The notes under the pieces: model-generated
What the model was told of the DNA's origin: nothing
Seen by the model: only the letters and a program-made list of their open reading frames with translations
The model's database searches: none
Source of the DNA: Escherichia coli
GTDB lineage: Bacteria > Pseudomonadota > Gammaproteobacteria > Enterobacterales > Enterobacteriaceae
NCBI RefSeq assembly: GCF_044324785.1
Contig: NZ_CP172127.1
Length of the DNA stretch: 64,000 nt
Reading direction: 5' to 3' (one strand)
Translations under genes and position numbers: made by a program
Shown here: positions 2,453 through 52,317 of the stretch, one piece after another
How positions within the stretch are numbered: the first letter of the stretch is position 1
Layout: every line of letters begins with the position of its first letter

Positions 2453-3359
<907 letters not shown>

Positions 3360-3915
3360 TTTCCAGGAGATGCTCCTGCATGGCTTTCAGATATGCATTT
3401 TCTGCGCGAAGATAACGCAGCTCATTCTTCATCTCTTCCGGCGTCATGTTTGCCTCGTTTTCATGGGTATCATCAGAACGGGTCATGCTTTTCTCCTTCC
3501 TGCGCCTGATAAAGGCCTCATTACCAGATTTGCGGTAGCCTTTTATCCAGTTTTTAACCGTGTTGTGGCTGGGAATGTTAAACCGGGCAGCTACCCGGGG
3601 TAGAGACTCAGAATGCCCGAGAGCATAAAGAACCACGCAAAGTTTATCTTCAGGAGAATAGCTACGCTTGTGTCTGCAATCCAGTGCCCGAGGACCGTGA
3701 AGAAGAAAAAGATTAATCCAGTGTGAGAGGCTGGTGTGAGAAAGTTGAAAGAGTTTTGCCGTAGAAATGATGCCTGCATGACCGGCCAGGTAATGATTTA
3801 CAGCGGCAAGTTTTACTTCAAATGAATGTTTCATAAACTGCACCTTCAGATGTCAGATTGTGTCCAACATTTGGGGTGCAGTTCAGCCAGCGTCGCATCC
3901 GGCATTTTTTTCACC

Positions 3916-4340: not shown

Positions 4341-7245
<2,905 letters not shown>

Positions 7246-7419
7246 TCACAACCCGAAGATGTTTCACTTCAGAGTTGCGAAAATTTGAGAGACTCACGAA
7301 CAACTTTCGTTGTTCAGTGTTTCAATTTTCAGCTTGATCCAGATTTTTAAAGAGCAAAACTTCGCAGTGAACCTTTGCAGGTACACTCTGAAGTATTTTT
7401 TATTTAATCACTACAGAGA

Positions 7420-7495
7420 TGGTGGAGCTATGCGGGATCGAACCGCAGACCTCCTGCGTGCAAAGCAGGCGCTCTCCCAGCTGAGCTATAGCCCC
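7420..7495 (-). tRNA. alaT: tRNA-Ala (UGC) in the 16S-23S spacer
   Basis: Reverse complement reads GGGGCTATAGCTCAGCTGGGAGAGCGCCTGCTTTGCACGCAGGAGGTCTGCGGTTCGATCCCGCATAGCTCCACCA. Confidence 0.95.
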
Positions 7496-7537
7496 ATAAC
7501 ATGTAGTTAAAACCTCTTCAAATTTGCGGTGCAAATT

Positions 7538-10156: not shown

Positions 10157-11608
10157 TCATTCACGCCAGAAAGTCGGGGTAAAGAGCACCAGCAATGTAA
10201 AGACCTCGAGACGACCAAACAGCATGTTGGCAATCAGGATCCATTTAGCCACCGGGTTCATACTGGTAAAGTTATCAGCAACCACGCCAAGCCCTGGCCC
10301 CAGGTTATTCAATGTCGCAACAACTGAGGCAAAGGCAGAAAAGTCATCCACGCCCGTGGCGATAATCGCCAGCATACTGACAATAAACACCAATGCATAG
10401 GCGGAGAAAAATCCCCAAACGGCTTCGAGGATACGTTCCGGCAGTGCGCGATTCCCCAGCTTAATGCTATAGACGGCGTTCGGATGCACCAGTCGTTTCA
10501 GCTCACGGTTCCCCTGCTTAAACAGCAGCAGGATGCGGATCACTTTCAGGCCACCGCCCGTTGACCCGGCGCAACCGCCGATAAAAGCTGAACATAAAAG
10601 CAGTACCGGCAAAAAGAGCGGCCAGCGGGCAATGCTGTCAGTCGTAAACCCGGCGGTTGTCGCCATCGATACCACCTGGAAAAACGCCTGGTTAATTGTC
10701 ATCAGCGCCGAACTGTAGACATTATGAAACCACAGTACGAGTGTACAAATAACCACCAGCGTAAACTGTACGCCGATAAACATGCGAAATTCCGGATCGC
10801 GCCAATAAACCTTCAGACTACGCCCACTTAACAGTGAAAAGTGCAGACCGTAGTTACAGCCGGAGATCAGCAGGAAGATAGCAATGATAGTGTTAATAGT
10901 CGGGCTGTCGAAATAACCGATACTGGCATCATGTGTCGAGAAGCCGCCAATAGCGATAGTCGCAAAGCTATGGCCGATGGCATCAAAGGCATCCATTCCG
11001 GCAAACCACAACGCCAGCGCACAGGCGACGGTCAGCAAGACATAAATCAACCATAGGGTTTTCGCCGTTTCCGCAATTCGCGGGCGCATTTTGTTATCTT
11101 TCAGCGGGCCGGGCATTTCTGCGCGATAGAGCTGCATCCCACCCACGCCGAGGATAGGCAGTATCGCAACCGCCAACACGATGATCCCCATCCCGCCAAA
11201 CCATTGCAGCATCTGGCGATAAAAGAGGATGGCGTGAGGGAGCGAATCCAGCCCCACCAGCGTAGTGGCCCCCGTGGTGGTCAGGCCAGAGAAAGATTCA
11301 AAAAACGCATCGGTAATCGTGAGGTTCGGGCTTTCCGAGAAGATAAAAGGGAGCGCACCGACGCTACCCAGCACGGTCCAGAACAGCACCACTATCAGAA
11401 ACCCCTCACGGGATTTCAGTTCGCCCTTCTCTTTGCGGTTCGGCCACCACAGCATAGAGCCAATGGCGAGGGCGACAAAAAAGGTCTGGGTAAAAGCGCG
11501 GCCCGCTCCATCCCGGTAGATGAGTGCTACCAGTCCAGGGATAATCATGGTCCCTGAAAATAAGATGACCAGTAGTCCAACGATTCGGGTAATGGCGCGA
11601 AAATGCAT
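10157..11608 (-). CDS. trkH: Trk system potassium uptake protein TrkH
   Basis: 483-aa polytopic membrane ORF; synteny. Confidence 0.9.
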   Translation of the reverse strand: MHFRAITRIVGLLVILFSGTMIIPGLVALIYRDGAGRAFTQTFFVALAIGSMLWWPNRKEKGELKSREGFLIVVLFWTVLGSVGALPFIFSESPNLTITDAFFESFSGLTTTGATTLVGLDSLPHAILFYRQMLQWFGGMGIIVLAVAILPILGVGGMQLYRAEMPGPLKDNKMRPRIAETAKTLWLIYVLLTVACALALWFAGMDAFDAIGHSFATIAIGGFSTHDASIGYFDSPTINTIIAIFLLISGCNYGLHFSLLSGRSLKVYWRDPEFRMFIGVQFTLVVICTLVLWFHNVYSSALMTINQAFFQVVSMATTAGFTTDSIARWPLFLPVLLLCSAFIGGCAGSTGGGLKVIRILLLFKQGNRELKRLVHPNAVYSIKLGNRALPERILEAVWGFFSAYALVFIVSMLAIIATGVDDFSAFASVVATLNNLGPGLGVVADNFTSMNPVAKWILIANMLFGRLEVFTLLVLFTPTFWRE

Positions 11609-11646
11609 CTCTGCCGCTTCCTTAGTTCTGCAAAACGAAGTGGGGA

Positions 11647-12264
11647 TTATTCTTCAATCGCTAACAATTGCAATGAACCACGGCTAAAATCCGCCAGCTT
11701 CGCGGAAAATTCAGCCACTTTCGCCGCCGGAAGCGCCACCCGCAGCAGAACGAATGCCTGATAATCACTGTTGATAATTTTGCCGTCACACTGCCCCAGC
11801 AACGCTTCAATGCCGGTTAACTGACTATATTCACATTGCAAAGTATATTCGGTTAATGGCGTCTTGCGTTGGGTCGTTAGCTGGCGCAGCGCCTGATTCA
11901 CGCCGCCGCCATACGCTTTCACTAACCCACCGGTGCCAAGCAATATGCCGCCGTAGTAGCGCACTACCACAGCGGTAATTTCCCCGACGCCGCTGCCCAT
12001 TAGCTGGGCGAGCATCGGTTTACCTGCCGTTCCCGCCGGCTCCCCGTCGTCAGAGAAACCCAGCTGTTGAGAATCATCCGGCGCACCCGCCACCCACGCC
12101 ACGCAATGGTGGCGGGCATCGGGGTGTTCTGCCCGCACCGATTCAACAAACGCTTTCGCCGCCTCAACGCCATCGGTATGCGCCAACATCGTTATGAAGC
12201 GGCTTTTTTTGATCTCTTCAACGACCGTGACCGGTGCCGCAGGAATTAACCAGCTTTCCATCAC
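11647..12264 (-). CDS. yigZ: IMPACT-family protein YigZ
   Basis: 205-aa ORF; position between trkH and pepQ. Confidence 0.85.
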
Positions 12265-38770: not shown

Positions 38771-40606
38771 CTACTCTTCGTCATCGCCATCAACATGCGC
38801 ACGAATCAGCGCCATGAACGGTTTGCCAAAGCGTTCCAGCTTGCGCATCCCAACGCCGTTAACGCTGAGCATTTCGCTGGCAGTGATCGGCATCTGTTCC
38901 GCCATCTCAATCAAGGTTGCGTCGTTAAATACCACGTACGGCGGGACATTGCTTTCATCGGCAATCGATTTACGCAGTTTGCGTAATTTGGCGAACAGTT
39001 TGCGATCGTAGTTGCCGCCGAAGGATTTCTGCATCGCTTTCGGTTTGAGCGCCACGATACGCGGCACGGCAAGTTGCAAAGAGGATTCGCCGCGCAGCAC
39101 CGGGCGCGCGGCCTCTGTCAGTTGTAGGGCAGAATGCTGGGCAATATTTTGCGTCACCAGGCCGAGGTGAATCAGCTGGCGGATCACGCTAACCCAATGT
39201 TCATGGCTTTTATCACGGCCCATGCCATAGACTTTCAGTTTGTCATGACCATAGTCGCGGATACGCTGGTTATTAGCGCCACGAATCACTTCCACCACAT
39301 AACCCATCCCAAACCGCTGATTCACACGACCAATGGTGGAAAGGGCAATCTGAGCATCGGTTGAACCATCGTATTGTTTCGGCGGATCGAGGCAGATATC
39401 GCAGTTCCCGCACGGCTCCTGCCGCCCTTCGCCAAAGTAGTTCAGCAGCACCAGACGACGGCAAGTTTGCGCTTCGGCAAACGCGCCCATCGCATTGAGT
39501 TTATGGCGCTCGATATCCTGCAACTGCCCCTGCGGTTTCTCTTCCAGACAACGGCGCAGCCACGCCATATCCGCTGGATCGTAAAACAGCATCGCTTCCG
39601 CGGGCAGGCCATCACGCCCGGCGCGTCCGGTTTCCTGATAATAGGATTCGATATTGCGCGGAATATCAAAGTGGACCACGAAGCGGACGTTTGGTTTATT
39701 GATGCCCATGCCGAACGCCACCGTCGCCACCACAATTTGCAGGTCATCGCGCTGGAATTTCTCCTGCACGTCGGCGCGAATATTATTTTCCAGCCCGGCA
39801 TGATAGGCCGCCGCGCTAATTCCCTTGCTTTGCAGGCGCGCAGCGGTGTCTTCTACTTTCGCCCGGCTGTTGCAGTAAATAATCCCCGACTTACCGCGTT
39901 GTTCCTGCACGTAGCGCATCAGCTGATCGAGAGGTTTGAACTTCTCCATCAACATGTAGCGAATATTCGGACGGTCAAAACTGCTAATTTGAATCAGCGG
40001 ATCGTTCAGCCCCAGCAGGCGCACGATATCCTGCCGCGTGGTGTCGTCGGCGGTGGCAGTCAGCGCCATAAACGGCAGCGTCGGAAAACGCTGACGCAGC
40101 TGACCGAGGGCAGCGTATTCCGGGCGGAAATCGTGGCCCCATTGGGAGATACAGTGCGCTTCATCAACGGCTAATAACACCGGATTCCAGTGCGCCAGAT
40201 GCTCAAGAAAGTTATCCAGCATCAGGCGTTCCGGCGCGATATAAAGCAGGCGGATTTGCCCGGTGCGACAGCCTGTCATAACTTCAAGTTGCTGCTCGCG
40301 GGTTTGCGTCGAGTTAAGGCACGCCGCCGCCACGCCGTTGGCTTGCAGTTGATCCACCTGATCTTTCATCAACGAAATCAGCGGTGAAACAACCACGGTA
40401 AGGCCGTTTAGCAATAAGGCAGGAATTTGATAGCAAAGGGATTTTCCGCCACCAGTGGGCATAACAACCAGGCAATCGCGACCGGAAAGTACGGTGTCGA
40501 TAATCTCTTCCTGGCCGGGGCGAAACTGTTGGTAGCCAAAGGTTTCTTGTAAAACCTGTTTAGCCCCTGACTCCAGATTCAACACTTCCGCCTGCGCCAC
40601 ATTCAC
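38771..40606 (-). CDS. recQ: ATP-dependent DNA helicase RecQ
   Basis: Helicase motifs ([16 protein letters not shown]), zinc-binding CGNCDIC, HRDC C-terminus; true start may be the GTG two codons in. Confidence 0.95.
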
Positions 40607-40608
40607 CC

Positions 40609-40637
40609 CGATTGCCTGAAATAAAAACAGGCGCTAT
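40609..40637 (-). terminator. Rho-independent terminator just upstream of recQ
   Basis: Minus strand CAGGCGCT-GAAAAT-AGCGCCTG followed by TTTTTAT. Confidence 0.65.
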
Positions 40638-40669
40638 TTTCAGCGCCTGCGCGAGAAACTGCAATGCTT

Positions 40670-41128
40670 TTAGCGTCTGGCTGGATAATGTTGGATGCTG
40701 GATTCCAGATTTGCCAGGATCAAAGCGACATCGGCATCCGCCAAACGAAATTCCGCCTGCCATATATTCTCTGACGTATGAAATGTAGGGCATAGCCCGC
40801 AAGCCAGTATCACTTTGATAATAATGACATCACCGGAATACCCTGTGTATTCGAACTCCAGGCATGGCTCGGTAAATTCCAGATTTTTCTCCGGGTAGCC
40901 ATCGGGAGAAGGGCGCTGCAACAATGTGGTAAACCACCTATGAAGCTTTGTTAAGTCATATGTCCCTATTGCCGGATCTATCTTTTCAAACCGCTGATTT
41001 CCCTGCGTCACGCCCACTTTGAGGAATAACCAGTTACCATCCCAGAAATTACTGGCATCAGGATACTGATACCCCATAACATCCAGCGTCAAAGTAACGG
41101 CCAGCTCACTATTGCTTAACGTAATCAT
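40670..41128 (-). CDS. Hypothetical 152-aa cytoplasmic protein between pldA and recQ
   Basis: Intact ORF with ATG start, no obvious SD, own terminator; no recognisable motif. Confidence 0.5.
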   Translation of the reverse strand: MITLSNSELAVTLTLDVMGYQYPDASNFWDGNWLFLKVGVTQGNQRFEKIDPAIGTYDLTKLHRWFTTLLQRPSPDGYPEKNLEFTEPCLEFEYTGYSGDVIIIKVILACGLCPTFHTSENIWQAEFRLADADVALILANLESSIQHYPARR

Positions 41129-41176
41129 ATCATTTGATTTTTAAACAAAAATTAGGTGCTGGCACTCTACCATGCA

Positions 41177-42046
41177 TTAAAACAGGTCGTTTAGCATAAC
41201 CCCCACACCAACGCGGGTCTGGTTGAAGTTATAGTCGATGAGCGATTCGCCATAGCCGCTGTAAACCTGAGTATAAAGGCGCACATGTTTGGTGATCGGG
41301 TAACTTAAGCCTAACTCCGCACCGCCGTAGCCCGTGTTCCAGTTGTACTGCCCTTTCGCACTGAGCACCGCATCACCGAGGTGATAGCCGATTTTAAGCT
41401 GGTAGTAACCCATATATTTGGTGATATCCGGGTTATCGTCAGTATTACCCACCACATACCACGGCTTCACCTCTACCAGCCAGTTACCGTTTTCTGCCAT
41501 CAGGCGTGTATAAAGGCGGTTCCAGCTGCGGGAGGTCGGGTCTGAACGCCCGTTAGAGTCGTGGTTATACCCCATCTCCACATCGCGCAGCGTCCAACCT
41601 GCAAAACGGTAATCGGTGGCAAAACCGAGGAACAATTGCGGTTCGTAGTTGGTTTCACGAAACGGTGAAGACTCTTCGCTATTGGACAGTTGCCACCAGG
41701 ATTTTTGCGTGTAAGACGCACCCAATACCGAGTTCGGGCCTAAAATCCCACGCCACAGCGGAAATGCCAGGCTCAACTGAAACTTTACTTCATCCTTACG
41801 CGCATTTTCCGCCCAGTCGTAACTGGCAATCGCTTCTTTATTCAGATCGCTGGTTTGGGTGTAGATGAGGTAGTTAGTGTCATAAGGATAGAGTGTGAAC
41901 GGATTGTCATGCTCCTGCAGCATATTGGCGATAATACTGCCACGCACCGCAGGCGCGTCATGCACCTCTTTCACCGTTGCCTCTTGTGCATATACTGCCA
42001 TAGGCAACATAAACACCGGCAACAACCAGCCCTGCAGAGTCCGCAT
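41177..42046 (-). CDS. pldA: Outer membrane phospholipase A
   Basis: 289-aa ORF with signal peptide and beta-barrel-like composition. Confidence 0.9.
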   Translation of the reverse strand: MRTLQGWLLPVFMLPMAVYAQEATVKEVHDAPAVRGSIIANMLQEHDNPFTLYPYDTNYLIYTQTSDLNKEAIASYDWAENARKDEVKFQLSLAFPLWRGILGPNSVLGASYTQKSWWQLSNSEESSPFRETNYEPQLFLGFATDYRFAGWTLRDVEMGYNHDSNGRSDPTSRSWNRLYTRLMAENGNWLVEVKPWYVVGNTDDNPDITKYMGYYQLKIGYHLGDAVLSAKGQYNWNTGYGGAELGLSYPITKHVRLYTQVYSGYGESLIDYNFNQTRVGVGVMLNDLF

Positions 42047-44529: not shown

Positions 44530-44672
44530 TTACAACCAGTTCTTCCGCTTAAAGTACAGATACGGTGCCAGGCCCGCGAGGATCATAAAGATAATCGCGC
44601 CAGGGTAGCCGAAACTCCACTTCAGTTCCGGCATAAACTCAAAGTTCATGCCATAGCTGGAGGCAATCCGCG
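44530..44672 (-). pseudogene. Diverged duplicate of the corA 3' end (last ~47 codons)
   Basis: ~143 bp at ~95% identity to 46241-46383; encodes the same ...[44 protein letters not shown] with only synonymous changes; homology begins exactly at the stop codon. Confidence 0.8.
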
Positions 44673-44856
44673 TAGGAAAAAGTTTCCTAATCGGTAAATT
44701 CAACATTTTGTTATTAACAATGAGCAAGACCAATCATTAACGACGTTCTCTTCAGAGATGTAATGAAAAAATGTGAAGTGTACTTCTTTTCTAAATATTT
44801 TTTTACCCTAGCATTTGTTCTCGAATTGATATTGAGCTTAAATATAACTAAGGCAA

Positions 44857-45711
44857 ATGCAAATGAATAACATATTACTTCCGCCAATTAATATTCCCTG
44901 TACACTTTTCGAAACTATTAGTTTATTCGATGATTTTTCTGCTGATGATATGCAATATGGTGATATGGTAGAACAAGACTTTCTCTCACTCGGCCTAAGC
45001 GATATCTCAGCAAAAGTTGATCCTTACCGACTTATTAAATACCATTTCCCTGGCCCAGGTTCTATTAATGTTGCTTTTAGTGCCTCAAGTTCCGGAACAA
45101 AAATATCACAACGTGAATGCACTGATATTTTATTTGCAGAAATGAAAGAACTAGCAAAAATGTTTTCCTTTTTTGGACAATATAAAACACTTATCGAAGA
45201 TCTGATTGAAAATTTTAGATATGGAAATGGCAGCAATTTTCATAGCCAACAATTAAATTTATCTTTTCATGAAAAAATAAATAAATATGGTTATAATAGT
45301 CCAATACGAATAATCAAAGAATGTATCGAAAATGGCATTAATTCAACTCCCTCGACAGGATACCAACCTCTTATCCTGCAAAGCATTAAAACCAAATTAC
45401 TTTCATCAAGACTAAATAAATTTAATGACTTCAAGGACAGTTTTAATGGCTTAGGAATCAGTGTTCATGATATTTCAGCTCAAAAAATATCTCTTTTAAG
45501 TTTTCAAAAATACGCTATAGGATGGAGTGCAACAATTCATTTTGTAGCACAGGACCACTTCGGTCTCGATGTAACTGATATCAAAAACAAGACTTATAGC
45601 AAATATAGATTTTTTCGCATATGGTTCTTTTTACAACGGCATAAAGACTTTGCTTTCAAACCTTTTTTCACCAATTTTAACACTATAGAAAGAATCGAAA
45701 ATTATCTATGA
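44857..45711 (+). CDS. Hypothetical 284-aa protein, AT-rich, no signal peptide; candidate effector/toxin-like protein
   Basis: Intact ORF in low-GC DNA inside the corA-repeat-bounded insert; stop overlaps the start of the next gene (ATGA). Confidence 0.5.
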   Translation: MQMNNILLPPINIPCTLFETISLFDDFSADDMQYGDMVEQDFLSLGLSDISAKVDPYRLIKYHFPGPGSINVAFSASSSGTKISQRECTDILFAEMKELAKMFSFFGQYKTLIEDLIENFRYGNGSNFHSQQLNLSFHEKINKYGYNSPIRIIKECIENGINSTPSTGYQPLILQSIKTKLLSSRLNKFNDFKDSFNGLGISVHDISAQKISLLSFQKYAIGWSATIHFVAQDHFGLDVTDIKNKTYSKYRFFRIWFFLQRHKDFAFKPFFTNFNTIERIENYL

Positions 45712-46199
45712 AAAGCAAACTCCAGAAAATTATATTATGTTTATTTCTTCTATGCTGCATCTATAATTTATGGACATTGCGTCCTGTACAGATTTTGTAT
45801 ACATACTCTGATGCTGGCAATTCAGTCTTTCTGGTCGTTGATCATCTGCCATGGACTGACAGCGATAAAATAAATTGGTATCTGAAGCATCAGAATGAAA
45901 TTAAAAATCAACATCCCCTACCAGAAGGTAGTTGGCATACCTGGTATGTCATTGATATCGGTAATGGCTTCACTGACTATAAAAAATATATTGAAGGGCC
46001 GTATGAAGATCTCTACTGTTTCCCGACAATTAAGAGCAATGATAATTGCATCGTGAAAAATTACTTAATGGTTATTAATGAATACCCTTATCGTAACACT
46101 CATATTGGTATTAACGATTTTACTGAGTATCAATTAACACAAGAAAATAAAATAGAGCGAGTTTTCAATCCGCATGACTTTAAAAAAGACAATTTTTAG
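45708..46199 (+). CDS. Hypothetical 163-aa protein with N-terminal signal peptide/membrane anchor; candidate periplasmic immunity-like partner
   Basis: N-terminal hydrophobic KIILCLFLLCCIYNLW; translationally coupled to the upstream gene. Confidence 0.5.
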   Translation: MKSKLQKIILCLFLLCCIYNLWTLRPVQILYTYSDAGNSVFLVVDHLPWTDSDKINWYLKHQNEIKNQHPLPEGSWHTWYVIDIGNGFTDYKKYIEGPYEDLYCFPTIKSNDNCIVKNYLMVINEYPYRNTHIGINDFTEYQLTQENKIERVFNPHDFKKDNF

Positions 46200-46240: not shown

Positions 46241-47191
46241 TTACAACCAGTTCTTCCGCTTAAAGTACAGATACGGTGCCAGGCCCGCGAGGATCATAAA
46301 GATAATCGCGCCTGGGTAGCCGAAACTCCACTTCAGTTCTGGCATAAACTCAAAGTTCATCCCGTAGCTGGAAGCAACCAGCGTCGGTGGCAGGAACACC
46401 ACGGATACCACCGAGAAGATTTTGATGATGCGGTTCTGCTCGATGTTGATAAAGCCCATAGCCGCCTGCATCAGGAAGTTCACCTTCTGGAACAGGGATT
46501 CGTTATGCGGCAGCAGGGATTCGATATCTCGCAGGATTTCACGCGCCTGCTCCAGTTGCCCACCCGGTAAGCGTGCTTTACGTACCAGGAAGTTGAGCGC
46601 GCGCTGGGTATCCATCAGACACAGGCGAACTTTCCAGCCGATATCTTCCAGTTCCGCCAGCGTGGAGAGCGCCTCGTCGTACTCATCGCCCTGATGCCCT
46701 TCCATAATTACCCGGCTCAACTGCTCCAGGTCGCTGTAGATATTTTCAATTTCATCTGCCAACTGTTCGATTTTGGTTTCGAACAGATCCAGCAGCAGCT
46801 CGTAGGCATTACCGTCTACCATCGACTGGCTACGGGCACGCATACGATACAGACGGAATGCAGGCAATTCACGCTCACGCAGAGTAAACAGACGACCATC
46901 ACGGATGGTAAATGCCACAGTGGAGTTACCGGCGTGATCTTCCGCATCTTCAAAGAAGAAGAAGGAGTGAATATGCAGGCCGTCATCGTCTTCAAAGAAA
47001 CGTGCCGATGCTTCGATGTCTTCCAGTTCCGGGCGGGTTGCCAGGCTCTGGCCAAGTTCAGATTGTACGCGCAGTCGCTCGTCGTCGTCCGGTTCGACAA
47101 GATCAATCCATACTGCATTTACAAGGGGTTGTGACTCTTCGACTTCCAGCCGGGTCAGTCGGTTATTTTCCAGTTGAAATGCGCTCAGCAT
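46241..47191 (-). CDS. corA: Magnesium/cobalt transport protein CorA
   Basis: [19 protein letters not shown]..., 316 aa, GMN motif ([12 protein letters not shown]). Confidence 0.95.
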
Positions 47192-47560
47192 GACCGGGAC
47201 TCCCAATGCTTAAAATATCGGACAGTTCGGTGGGCACACAGAAACAAATTGGGTTTCAGACCATTAAACAGCCTGACTCAGCGCGACGGGAAAAATTGAG
47301 GTCGCTGACAACCGCTAAGGCTATCAGCAAAAAGGGATAGCCTTAGGAGTTGATCCTGGATGACAGGATAGTGAGCCAGTATCTACTGGGTGTGTCCAAG
47401 GCGAATGTCCTCTTAGAGTGATCGTGCGCGCATGTTACGCCAGCAAAATTTTGCCGTCAACACGCAACAGAACACCACAGAACAATAGTTGAACTTCGCG
47501 CTTTTTGGTACTCGTCAAGGTCGCTAACAGGATAAAAAAATCCCACATCCAGGACCTATA

Positions 47561-49354: not shown

Positions 49355-51517
49355 TCACACCGTCTCCAACCGGGCGTAAGCCGCCACCAGCCATTTAATA
49401 CCCTGGCCCTGGAACGCCACCTGCAAACGGCTATGCTCACCGCTGCCTTCCATATTGACGATGGTGCCTTCACCAAACTTAGCGTGGCGTACGCGCTGGC
49501 CGAGCTTGTAGCCGCTGTCGTTCTCGACCATCGGCGTACCCATCCGTTGATGGCTGACCGGGCGGCTTACCGTGGCGCGCAGGCGCACCTCTTCCACACA
49601 CTCTTCCGGCAACTCACCGATAAAGCGCGACGGGCGATGGTAAACCTCTTTGCCATACAGACGGCGGGTTTCCGCGTAGGTCAGCGTCAGTTTCTGCATC
49701 GCGCGGGTTACGCCAACGTAGGCCAGACGGCGTTCTTCTTCCAGACGTCCGCCTTCATCCAGCGACATCTGACTTGGGAACATACCCTCTTCCATACCGA
49801 CGATAAACACCTGCGGGAACTCCAGCCCTTTCGCCGAGTGTAGCGTCATCAACTGCACCGCGTCCTGCCAGGTATCCGCCTGCCCTTCACCTGCTTCCAG
49901 TGCCGCATGGGAGAGGAACGCCTGCAGCGGCATTAAATCTTCGTCTTCTTCGTTGTAGCTGAACTGGCGCGTCGCCGTCACCAGTTCCTCCAGGTTTTCG
50001 ATACGCGTCTGACCTTTTTCGCCCTTCTCCTGCTCGTACATGGTGCGCAAGCCGGAGTCTTTAATTACCCGGTCAGTCTGTACATGCAGCGGCATATCGG
50101 CAGTTTCCTGCGCTAAGGCGTCGATCAGTTCCATAAACCGTTGCAAGGCACTGGCAGCACGTCCGGCGAGGGCTTTTTCCTGCAACAGTTCACGACATGC
50201 CTGCCAGAGTGTTAACTGACGATCGCGCGATGTCTGACGTACCACGTCCAGCGTCCGGTCACCAATACCCCGCGTTGGCGTATTCACCACGCGCTCAAAC
50301 GCCGCGTCGTCGTTGCGGTTGGCAATCAGGCGCAGATACGAGAGCGCGTCTTTGATTTCCTGGCGTTCGAAGAAGCGCATCCCGCCGTAAATACGGTACG
50401 GCATACTCGCCTGCAACAGTGCTTCTTCCAGCACACGCGACTGGGCGTTACTGCGGTAGAGAATGGCGCACTCGGCGAGCGCCCCGCCGTTGTCCTGCCA
50501 GGTCTTGATACGGTTAACCACAAAACGCGCTTCGTCGAGTTCGTTAAAAGCGCAATAGAGGGAAATCGGCTCACCGTCCGCGCCATCGGTCCACAGTTTT
50601 TTACCCAGACGCCCGTTGTTGTTTTCAATCAGGGCGTTAGCGGCGCTCAGAATATTGCTGGTAGAGCGGTAGTTTTGCTCCAGACGAATAGTTTCGGCAC
50701 CGGGGAAATCATTAAGGAAACGCTGAATATTCTCCACCTGCGCCCCGCGCCAGCCGTAGATTGACTGGTCGTCATCGCCAACGATCATCACTTTGCCGGT
50801 GTCGCCCGCCAGCAGGCGGATCCACGCGTACTGAATGTTGTTGGTATCCTGGAATTCGTCCACCAGGATGTTAGTAAAACGTTCGCGGTAGTGTTGCAGG
50901 ATATGCGGCTTGTTAAGCCACAACTCGTGAGCACGTAGCAGCAGCTCGGCGAAGTCCACCAGGCCCGCGCGGTCACACGCTTCCTGATACGCCTGATACA
51001 CCTTCTGCCAGGTCTGCTCCACCGGATTACCGTAGCTTTGAATATGATGTGGACGCAGGCCTTCATCTTTCTGGCTGTTGATGTACCACATTGCCTGGCG
51101 CGGCGGCCACTGCTTCTCGTCGAGGTTCATCGCCTTGATTAGGCGTTTGAGCAGGCGTAGCTGGTCCTCGCTGTCGAGGATCTGAAAATCCTGCGGCAGA
51201 TTGGCGTCCATATGGTGCGCACGCAGCAGACGGTGCGCCAGCCCGTGGAAGGTGCCGACCCACATGCCGCCCTGGCTGGTGCCCATCAGCTGCCCGATAC
51301 GATGACGCATCTCCGCCGCCGCTTTGTTGGTAAACGTTACCGCCATAATCGAGTATGGCGAGCAGTTTTCCACGCTCATCAGCCAGGCGATACGATGCAC
51401 CAATACGCGCGTCTTACCACTGCCCGCGCCCGCCAGCACCAGAAGGTTGCTGCGTGGCGCGGCCACCGCTTCGCGCTGTTTGTCATTAAGGCTGTCGAGC
51501 AGGTAAGAAACGTCCAT
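49355..51517 (-). CDS. uvrD: DNA helicase II UvrD
   Basis: MDVSYLLDSLNDKQREAVAAPRSNLLVLAGAGSGKTRVL... 720 aa; the ORF-track extension upstream is probably untranslated. Confidence 0.95.
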   Translation of the reverse strand: MDVSYLLDSLNDKQREAVAAPRSNLLVLAGAGSGKTRVLVHRIAWLMSVENCSPYSIMAVTFTNKAAAEMRHRIGQLMGTSQGGMWVGTFHGLAHRLLRAHHMDANLPQDFQILDSEDQLRLLKRLIKAMNLDEKQWPPRQAMWYINSQKDEGLRPHHIQSYGNPVEQTWQKVYQAYQEACDRAGLVDFAELLLRAHELWLNKPHILQHYRERFTNILVDEFQDTNNIQYAWIRLLAGDTGKVMIVGDDDQSIYGWRGAQVENIQRFLNDFPGAETIRLEQNYRSTSNILSAANALIENNNGRLGKKLWTDGADGEPISLYCAFNELDEARFVVNRIKTWQDNGGALAECAILYRSNAQSRVLEEALLQASMPYRIYGGMRFFERQEIKDALSYLRLIANRNDDAAFERVVNTPTRGIGDRTLDVVRQTSRDRQLTLWQACRELLQEKALAGRAASALQRFMELIDALAQETADMPLHVQTDRVIKDSGLRTMYEQEKGEKGQTRIENLEELVTATRQFSYNEEDEDLMPLQAFLSHAALEAGEGQADTWQDAVQLMTLHSAKGLEFPQVFIVGMEEGMFPSQMSLDEGGRLEEERRLAYVGVTRAMQKLTLTYAETRRLYGKEVYHRPSRFIGELPEECVEEVRLRATVSRPVSHQRMGTPMVENDSGYKLGQRVRHAKFGEGTIVNMEGSGEHSRLQVAFQGQGIKWLVAAYARLETV

Positions 51518-51600
51518 TGGCACCGCCGCGTAAAAATAGGTTGGGCGGAGAAGCGCAACGCCCTCCGCCAAAAAGCTGGGTATATATACAGATTTGCTGA

Positions 51601-52317
51601 TTATATCAGCGAGGTCAGAGATGCCAACCGGGAAATTTCCAGATGCGGGAGTAAACGGCTGTCCCAGGTTTGCATCAGATCGCCATTTTCCGGTCTGATC
51701 CAACAGGCCTGCATTCCGCTGCGAATTGCCCCACCCACGTCAGTGGTGAGATCGTCCCCGACATGTAAGATCTCGCCGATCGGCACGTTGAGTTTTTCCG
51801 CCGCCAGGAAGTACATATCGCTGAACGGTTTTGAGCGCCCGTGCGGGCCAGCGCGCAACACAAACTCAAAATAATCCCCTAAACCAAACAGCTCCGGCTG
51901 GGCGTTACCGTTGGTGATCGCCACCAGCGGCCATTTCTTCGCCAGCTGTTTTAAGGTGTCGTGGGTTTGCTGCGGGACCTCGATCCGGCTGCGCCATTTG
52001 GCAAAGTTGATCATTGCTGCATGTGCGCCTGCACTGGCTTCTTCGGCACTCAACCCGGCGTCGAGCATCGCTTGTTCAATCGAACGAAAACGCCAGCGCG
52101 TCACGTCGTGATAAATCTCGGGTTCCGCTTCCCGTACCGCCTGGCGCAGGCGTTGCAGATCTTCATTCTGGAAGCTGCGCAGCGCCGGATGGTAATTTTG
52201 CACAAAGGTAAGCGCCTCTCGCTCGGTGCGCAAAATCACCGGACGGTTATCGTAAAGGGTATCATCCAGGTCAAAGGTGAGCGCCGAGATGCGCCCCAAA
52301 GGCCGGTAAAAACGCAT
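51601..52317 (-). CDS. yigB: HAD-family 5-amino-6-(5-phospho-D-ribitylamino)uracil phosphatase YigB
   Basis: 238-aa ORF with [12 protein letters not shown] motif. Confidence 0.85.

Follow-up and report, generated by a model that had tools for sequence, protein, structure and literature searches.

The 152-aa open reading frame (ORF) between pldA and recQ in the window, the whole 64,000-nt stretch of Escherichia coli DNA analysed here, is a genuine, annotatable member of the known WapI-like immunity protein family. Alignments also show the gene to be ancestral to the pldA–recQ slot of Escherichia and K-12 to be a 445-nt deletion derivative. Identity and history, taken jointly, are very nearly certain.

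The protein matches Pfam PF24716, "Immunity protein WapI-like family", almost from end to end (E=6.6e-22, 78.6 bits; ORF residues 12–149 on model positions 9–138 of 138), which overturns its description in the initial annotation as unannotatable and lacking any recognisable motif. An identical protein is already present in RefSeq and UniRef (WP_042003081.1 / UPI0005A65139) as "WapI family immunity protein". Given its existing family name in RefSeq, the gene is not to be treated as a novel orphan. A HMMER search returned 602 clusters (50% identity) at E<=1e-3, nearly all of them stand-alone proteins of ~140–175 aa. Across an 85-sequence alignment, the family-invariant residues Y20, W33, W65 and P149 (window numbering) are all kept in the window protein, as are the near-invariant P23, F85, E87, P88, P114 and R151. 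The NCBIfam scan of the ORF protein gave zero matches, and searching PDB sequences with the protein, and again with the 85-sequence profile, returned no PF24716 family member. Bacillus subtilis WapI was absent from the named homologs of the profile search and from the top 50 AFDB matches, and literature searches for yxxG or a WapI structure yielded nothing usable.

Among A-type alleles, defined below (window/N3, GF4-3 and locus L004), the dN/dS of the ORF is 0.26–0.33, compared to 0.005–0.02 for the neighbouring pldA and recQ across those genome pairs. The window and L004 ORFs differ by 13 synonymous and 13 non-synonymous changes, where ~22% synonymous is expected under neutrality (binomial p=0.0015). 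A dN/dS of ~0.3 together with this synonymous excess therefore identifies a live protein-coding gene under purifying selection, much looser than that on pldA and recQ; the value of 0.3 also fits merely relaxed constraint. The Pfam match and the synonymous excess likewise mean that this is not a chance ORF, and the reading frame is intact in every examined carrier, covering three species and two alleles.

Organization of the pldA–recQ interval

The window is oriented in reverse of the K-12 map. On its minus strand, pldA is followed by a 48-nt spacer, the 152-aa ORF, a terminator hairpin and recQ (Table 1). The ORF list confirms the intact, ATG-started ORF of the initial annotation, and its statement that the K-12 gap is short was also correct; the distance from the pldA stop to the recQ start is 576 nt in the window and 132 nt in K-12 MG1655. 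The GC content of the ORF, given initially as near average, is slightly lower than that of the window (46.6% vs 51.2%). No obvious Shine–Dalgarno sequence for the ORF was found by eye. The mechanical recQ ORF extends beyond the RefSeq-type start to an in-frame upstream GTG at 40606, and the RecQ protein of the window shares 99.7–99.8% amino acid identity with those of loci L003 and L004.

Table 1. Features of the pldA–recQ interval (window coordinates) and the basis on which each was assigned
Feature	Position	Strand	Basis
pldA (outer-membrane phospholipase A)	41177..42046	-	289-aa ORF; annotated pldA in strain N3
Conserved 5' handle (pldA end, spacer, codons 1-17)	41078..41200	-	98-99% identical to L003, E. 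albertii
pldA-ORF spacer, 48 nt	41129..41176	-	Promoter/terminator scan negative; hairpin no better than shuffles
Segment missing from K-12 and nearly all E. coli, 445 nt	40717..41161	-	Alignments; 33 nt of spacer plus codons 1-137
WapI-like immunity-family gene, allele A, 152 aa + stop	40670..41128	-	Pfam PF24716, conserved residues, AF2 model, dN/dS
Hypervariable core, codons 18-134 (117 codons)	40727..41077	-	blastn gives no alignment of A vs B
Conserved 3' handle (last ~18 codons, stop, terminator, recQ leader)	40601..40726	-	Alignments with K-12, L003, E. albertii
Candidate weak promoter TTGCAG-N17-GAAAAT, overlapping hairpin	40636..40664	-	By eye; below scan threshold
Intrinsic terminator (stem-loop 40627-40650, T-run 40619-40627)	40619..40650	-	Terminator scan and MFE fold
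recQ, 609 aa, RefSeq-type GTG start 40598-40600	38771..40600	-	ORF list, N3 annotation

A strong terminator of the hairpin and T-run type does separate the ORF from recQ, but it lies 13–18 nt away from the position first assigned to it (40609–40637). The hairpin has a 10-bp stem with six G-C pairs and a 4-nt loop, and is followed by TTTTTATTT at 40619–40627. The end of the T-run is 18 nt from the recQ GTG at 40600, rather than the ~25 nt estimated originally. The terminator sequence is the same in K-12, L003, L004, N3 and E. albertii; the hairpin would serve to close the pldA–ORF unit in the window and as the terminator following pldA in K-12. The weak terminator that had been attributed to pldA itself was not supported, as the spacer hairpin (−6.9 kcal/mol) is no better than shuffled sequence (z=+0.56) and the scan gave no call. 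One terminator-like site within the ORF, at 41054–41073, was judged to be due to chance because the scan expects 0.9 such sites per region. An Rfam scan of 40450–41350 produced matches at chance level only. Because the 48-nt spacer has neither a promoter nor an effective terminator, and a strong terminator is first met beyond the ORF, pldA and the ORF would be transcribed together, the ORF second, in a unit ending at the hairpin before recQ.

The recQ promoter, suspected initially of being displaced, appears to be where it is in K-12. The 117 nt 5' of recQ match K-12 except for five substitutions, all in remnant codons, and the 445-nt length difference from K-12 falls upstream of this shared stretch. 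Between the ORF stop and the recQ start there are 0–1 differences per genome compared: the window is identical to K-12, and L003 and E. albertii show at most one each. Since the 117 nt are common to K-12 and the window, the element driving recQ in K-12 should also be present here, inside the 3' end of the ORF and the terminator region, and nothing would have moved. A sigma-70 consensus scan of 40400–41400 detected no promoter, and no recQ promoter map was found in the literature searched. The candidate weak promoter listed in Table 1 is invariant in all compared genomes and might start transcripts within the 3' arm of the hairpin, which we offer as a suggestion only.

A LexA box had been proposed as something to locate here as well. 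No LexA-box-like site is present in the pldA–recQ spacer, and the nearest one-mismatch CTGT-N8-ACAG is at 40526–40541, inside recQ, at chance level. As an informal positive control, the search recovered CTGGGTATATATACAG at 51576–51591, a one-mismatch palindrome just 5' of a uvrD-sized ORF (49355–51703, minus strand), which is probably the known uvrD SOS box.

Deletion from K-12 and exchange of two alleles

The ORF is carried by two of the 5,426 complete E. coli genomes, those of strains N3 (100% identity) and GF4-3 (97%), and the window is 99.6% identical to N3 across 12.6 kb. The K-12 spacer consists of ~15 nt past the pldA stop fused to the last 14 codons of the ORF, followed by the stop, the hairpin and the recQ leader. 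These remnant codons read ...ANLESSIQDYPLRD*, which is exactly how the GF4-3 and L004 alleles end. The same pldA–recQ slot is occupied in L003, an Escherichia contig with flanks ~94% identical to those of the window, and in the E. albertii type strain, E. albertii being the only hit of a peptide-pattern scan of genome contigs. Source names assign a 160-aa form of the protein to E. fergusonii, E. albertii and a small number of E. coli, and the 152-aa form to E. coli plus some E. fergusonii.

Since K-12 keeps the last 14 codons, the stop and the terminator, it is the deletion derivative and the gene is ancestral. Loss of an ancestral gene from K-12 was among the readings raised initially, and the K-12 remnant and the same-slot gene in E. 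albertii and E. fergusonii bear it out. The alignment with K-12 that had been proposed as a check pointed the same way, as K-12 has its 132 nt in place of a ~570-bp spacer. A recent foreign insertion was considered and rejected, because K-12 has the remnant and the gene occupies this slot in outgroup species too. The spacers of other E. coli measure 131 or 124 nt with an unchanged right-hand junction (...TGGCAAATCTGG...), and their ORF-remnant tails fall into two types, HYPARR and DYPLRD. This common junction with mixed tails points to a single ancestral deletion, or a single deletion hotspot, with recombination afterwards.

Occupied slots contain one of two alleles, A (152 aa, as in the window) or B (160 aa, as in L003 and E. 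albertii). The WapI-like proteins encoded by A and B are 46–53% identical, compared to 95% for PldA and 99.7% for RecQ. Within the core, pS between A and B is 0.78–0.80 (saturated) and dN is 0.47, and the flanking genes overall have a dS of 0.3–0.9. The dS of codons 1–17 is 0.09–0.18, versus 0.48–0.87 for pldA, and the 48-nt spacer shows only one difference from L003 and one from E. albertii. The 3' handle is retained for the most part in K-12. Together, these alignments show a locus in which a variable core is framed by conserved handles of ~100–120 nt on either side, with two deep alleles and a null shared across species. A perfect 11-nt palindrome, CTGGAATCCAG, is found in the 3' end of the ORF (40698–40708, minus strand) and is kept in K-12, and allele B has CTGGAATCTTA.

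Allele B differs between L003 and E. albertii by a dS of 0.048, whereas the adjacent pldA and recQ have a dS of 0.93 and 0.57, respectively. Such a near-identical allele between species with strongly diverged flanks indicates that allele B crossed species recently. Homologous recombination in the conserved handles would account for the swapping of alleles.

Accessory variation was also seen elsewhere. The window has a two-gene accessory insert beside corA (44857–46199, plus strand), with a 147-nt duplicate of the 3' end of corA, 94.6% identical, at its boundary (partial copy at ~44530–44676; intact corA at 46241–47206, minus strand). The first gene of this insert belongs to the YPO3983 family / DUF3289 (TIGR03034, E=6.5e-131; PF11692, E=4e-83), and the second is annotated as DUF943 family in N3. 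The insert is found in 2,636 of the 5,426 complete E. coli genomes and is missing from the K-12-like arrangement. L003 carries a Transposase_31 / Rpn-family gene (11103–11963 of that locus) between two LysE-family exporters in the rhtC and rhtB positions, which neither the window nor N3 has. At locus L012 (E. coli GF4-3, 2592–3554), in the corA–rarD interval, yigF and yigG of N3 are replaced by a single gene for a 99-aa hypothetical protein, another indel of a variable neighbourhood.

Predicted fold and proposed function

AlphaFold2 with the family alignment gave a model with a pLDDT of 95.2 and a pTM of 0.89. The model shows two sheets and two packed helices in a bbbba-bbbba arrangement, the topology of the sPC4L/Whirly-like superfamily (Pfam clan CL0609). 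This predicted fold, ββββα repeated twice, is the Whirly/sPC4L fold, a documented immunity scaffold. The topology is common to the predicted model, sPC4L-Imm1 and -Imm2, CdiI (PDB 4NTQ_B, 5FFP_A) and Imm42, and some AFDB structural neighbours of the window protein carry the label Immunity protein 42. The predicted fold is shared at TM 0.86–0.96 by Bacillus and Paenibacillus proteins of 141–147 aa. The window protein is acidic, with a pI of 4.72 and a net charge of −8, and the median pI of the family is 4.76.

Taken overall, the evidence is best explained by an orphan WapI-like immunity gene co-transcribed with pldA, an explanation that we consider probable. An immunity function for the protein is modestly favoured. 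In B. subtilis, wapI lies directly downstream of wapA (PMC3967940), and WapI neutralises its cognate WapA tRNase toxin only; immunity proteins are diverse in sequence (PMC3967940, PMC5566331). The window protein resembles WapI in matching the WapI-named PF24716 nearly full length and in being a single-domain protein of the 140–165 aa class. However, wapI follows the toxin gene wapA, whereas the window gene has no toxin partner, follows the housekeeping gene pldA and belongs to a Gram-negative host. The link between the two proteins rests on the Pfam and RefSeq name.

The locus has the features of an orphan immunity gene. No ORF longer than 850 aa exists anywhere in the 64 kb, and therefore the window has no Rhs- or CdiA-sized gene. 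The ORF does not follow a wapA- or rhs-type toxin gene: pldA is upstream and recQ downstream, and N3, GF4-3, L003, L004 and E. albertii show the same arrangement. The orphan immunity-type gene guessed at initially agrees with the PF24716 assignment and with this absence of a toxin-sized ORF. Orphan immunity genes have no toxin of their own, vary among strains, evolve fast and are exchanged horizontally (bioRxiv 10.1101/471110, PMC12247911). The window gene likewise is homologous to an immunity family and has no cognate toxin gene at its locus; it too shows strain-variable presence, rapid divergence and horizontal exchange. Known orphans, such as those of the AID clusters of gut Bacteroidales and of T6SS, are usually in arrays on mobile elements or beside T6SS/rhs loci. 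Unlike these, the window gene is single, occupies a fixed slot in the core genome, is exchanged through handles and has just two deep alleles.

As an orphan immunity protein, the acidic ORF product would bind and block a C-terminal toxin domain, most likely a basic one of the nuclease or tRNase type. The toxin would be polymorphic and would come from competing enterobacteria by way of Rhs/T6SS, CDI or a similar system. The A/B dimorphism and the presence or absence of the gene would then reflect the toxins that a lineage meets, with toxin exposure maintaining A, B and the null. A bolder form of this proposal, which we put forward tentatively and regard as doubtful, is that the pldA–recQ slot is a core-genome immunity cassette under long-term balancing selection. 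Cores A and B and the null would be shuffled through the handles among E. coli, E. fergusonii and E. albertii, each core neutralising a different circulating enterobacterial toxin, and PF24716 genes would be mostly toxin-unlinked and embedded in operons.

Neighbourhoods of more distant relatives bear on whether the immunity label itself is right. Ten neighbourhoods from outside Escherichia were sampled (a Leptospiraceae MAG, Gilliamella, Deinococcus, Cellulomonas, a Methylomonas plasmid and several metagenomic contigs); no recognisable polymorphic toxin adjoins the family gene in any of them, so this sample did not reproduce a linkage of the family to toxins. The gene typically follows an unrelated housekeeping gene on the same strand, at a distance of <= ~110 nt (RND pump, phosphoribosyltransferase, msrP-like, AFG1 ATPase, LOG-family or yfbR), an arrangement resembling that with pldA. 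It follows either that orphan immunity genes commonly sit in housekeeping operons, or that the name "immunity" given to PF24716 should be revisited by experiment.

Several of these contexts are distinctive. At loci L015 (5334–5786) and L016 (586–1038), a WapI-like gene sits between an Oxidored_molyb (msrP-like) and a Ferric_reduct (msrQ-like) gene, with a 3-nt gap upstream and an 8-nt overlap downstream, and so lies inside what is normally a two-gene operon. On the Methylomonas koyamae plasmid pFW12EY (L022), a homolog with 32% identity (7001–7516) lies between yfbR (5'-deoxynucleotidase) and an ADP-ribosylglycohydrolase gene, and WYL, YbjN and DUF1819/DUF1788 (BrxA/BrxB-like) neighbours give it a conflict-island context. 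One metagenomic contig (L026) has two diverged WapI-like paralogs (288–773 and 7001–7498; 34% identity over the N-terminal 71 residues), each overlapping the end of an unannotated upstream ORF by 4 nt. These upstream ORFs were considered as toxins, and the lead was dropped because they are unrelated to each other and the one NERD match is non-significant (E=0.02); the ORF and paralog sets may be unrecognised toxin–immunity pairs. The L022 and L026 contexts hint at conflict biology.

Such neighbourhoods lend weight to the view that the PF24716 label is over-extended, and that its proteins may be small, acidic and free-standing, with a role in the cell independent of toxins and genes tucked into host operons. 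They might act as protein-binding regulators, chaperones or nucleic-acid mimics, the Escherichia gene being a dispensable such member. The ten sampled relatives without an adjoining toxin are mostly downstream of housekeeping genes, and the PF24716 membership of the founder, B. subtilis WapI, rests on the Pfam/RefSeq name. However, a toxin-independent role does not predict a saturated dimorphism with conserved handles, recent transfer of an allele between species, or absence from >99.9% of complete E. coli genomes. The structural neighbours labelled Immunity protein 42, the fold being a known immunity scaffold, and the one relative in a conflict-gene island (WYL, ADP-ribosylglycohydrolase, BrxA/BrxB-like) also speak against it, and we consider it unlikely.

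That the gene is a functionless relic heading for deletion, intact here by chance, is improbable. Its disappearance from almost all E. coli, a dN/dS ~50-fold above that of its neighbours and the lack of an obvious Shine–Dalgarno sequence would be in keeping with decay. Against this, the frames of all examined carriers are intact, the synonymous excess is significant, all family-invariant residues are kept in a confidently folded model, and the exact 152-aa protein is recorded on 308 contigs.

The protein could also be read as a Whirly/PUR/MRP-like single-stranded nucleic-acid binder working with the adjacent RecQ helicase in DNA repair or recombination. Nucleic-acid binders of this kind bind through basic surfaces. 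Judged by overall charge as a proxy, the window protein does not have such a surface, and the acidic character extends to its family; its sequence identity to Whirly, Pur-alpha and MRP1–MRP2 is 8–13%. No sampled non-Escherichia relative is linked to recQ, a strong terminator separates the ORF from recQ, and RecQ of K-12 and nearly all E. coli works without the ORF protein, all of which make this partnership very improbable. That the gene serves in anti-phage defence, the other initial guess, or is an accessory gene derived from phage is equally hard to credit: it is small, isolated and variably present, and one relative lies near BREX-like genes on the Methylomonas plasmid, but PADLOC gave 0 families at E<=1 for the ORF protein, PHROGs gave 0 matches at E<=0.01 for both the allele A and the allele B protein, and mobile-element genes are absent from a conserved chromosomal slot.

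In terms of annotation the gene is ordinary, belonging to a known family with a RefSeq name in place; it is the configuration that is orphan. For K-12, the pldA–recQ intergenic region, including the hairpin that terminates pldA, is the stump of a lost gene, and readings of recQ or pldA regulation made from K-12 only are affected by this derivation. K-12 also provides a ready-made null background for protection tests. The locus is a clean natural case of a deep two-allele-plus-null polymorphism common to Escherichia species, with recent transfer between them. If the cassette proposal is true, single orphan immunity genes in housekeeping operons would be a widespread, overlooked layer of interbacterial defence.
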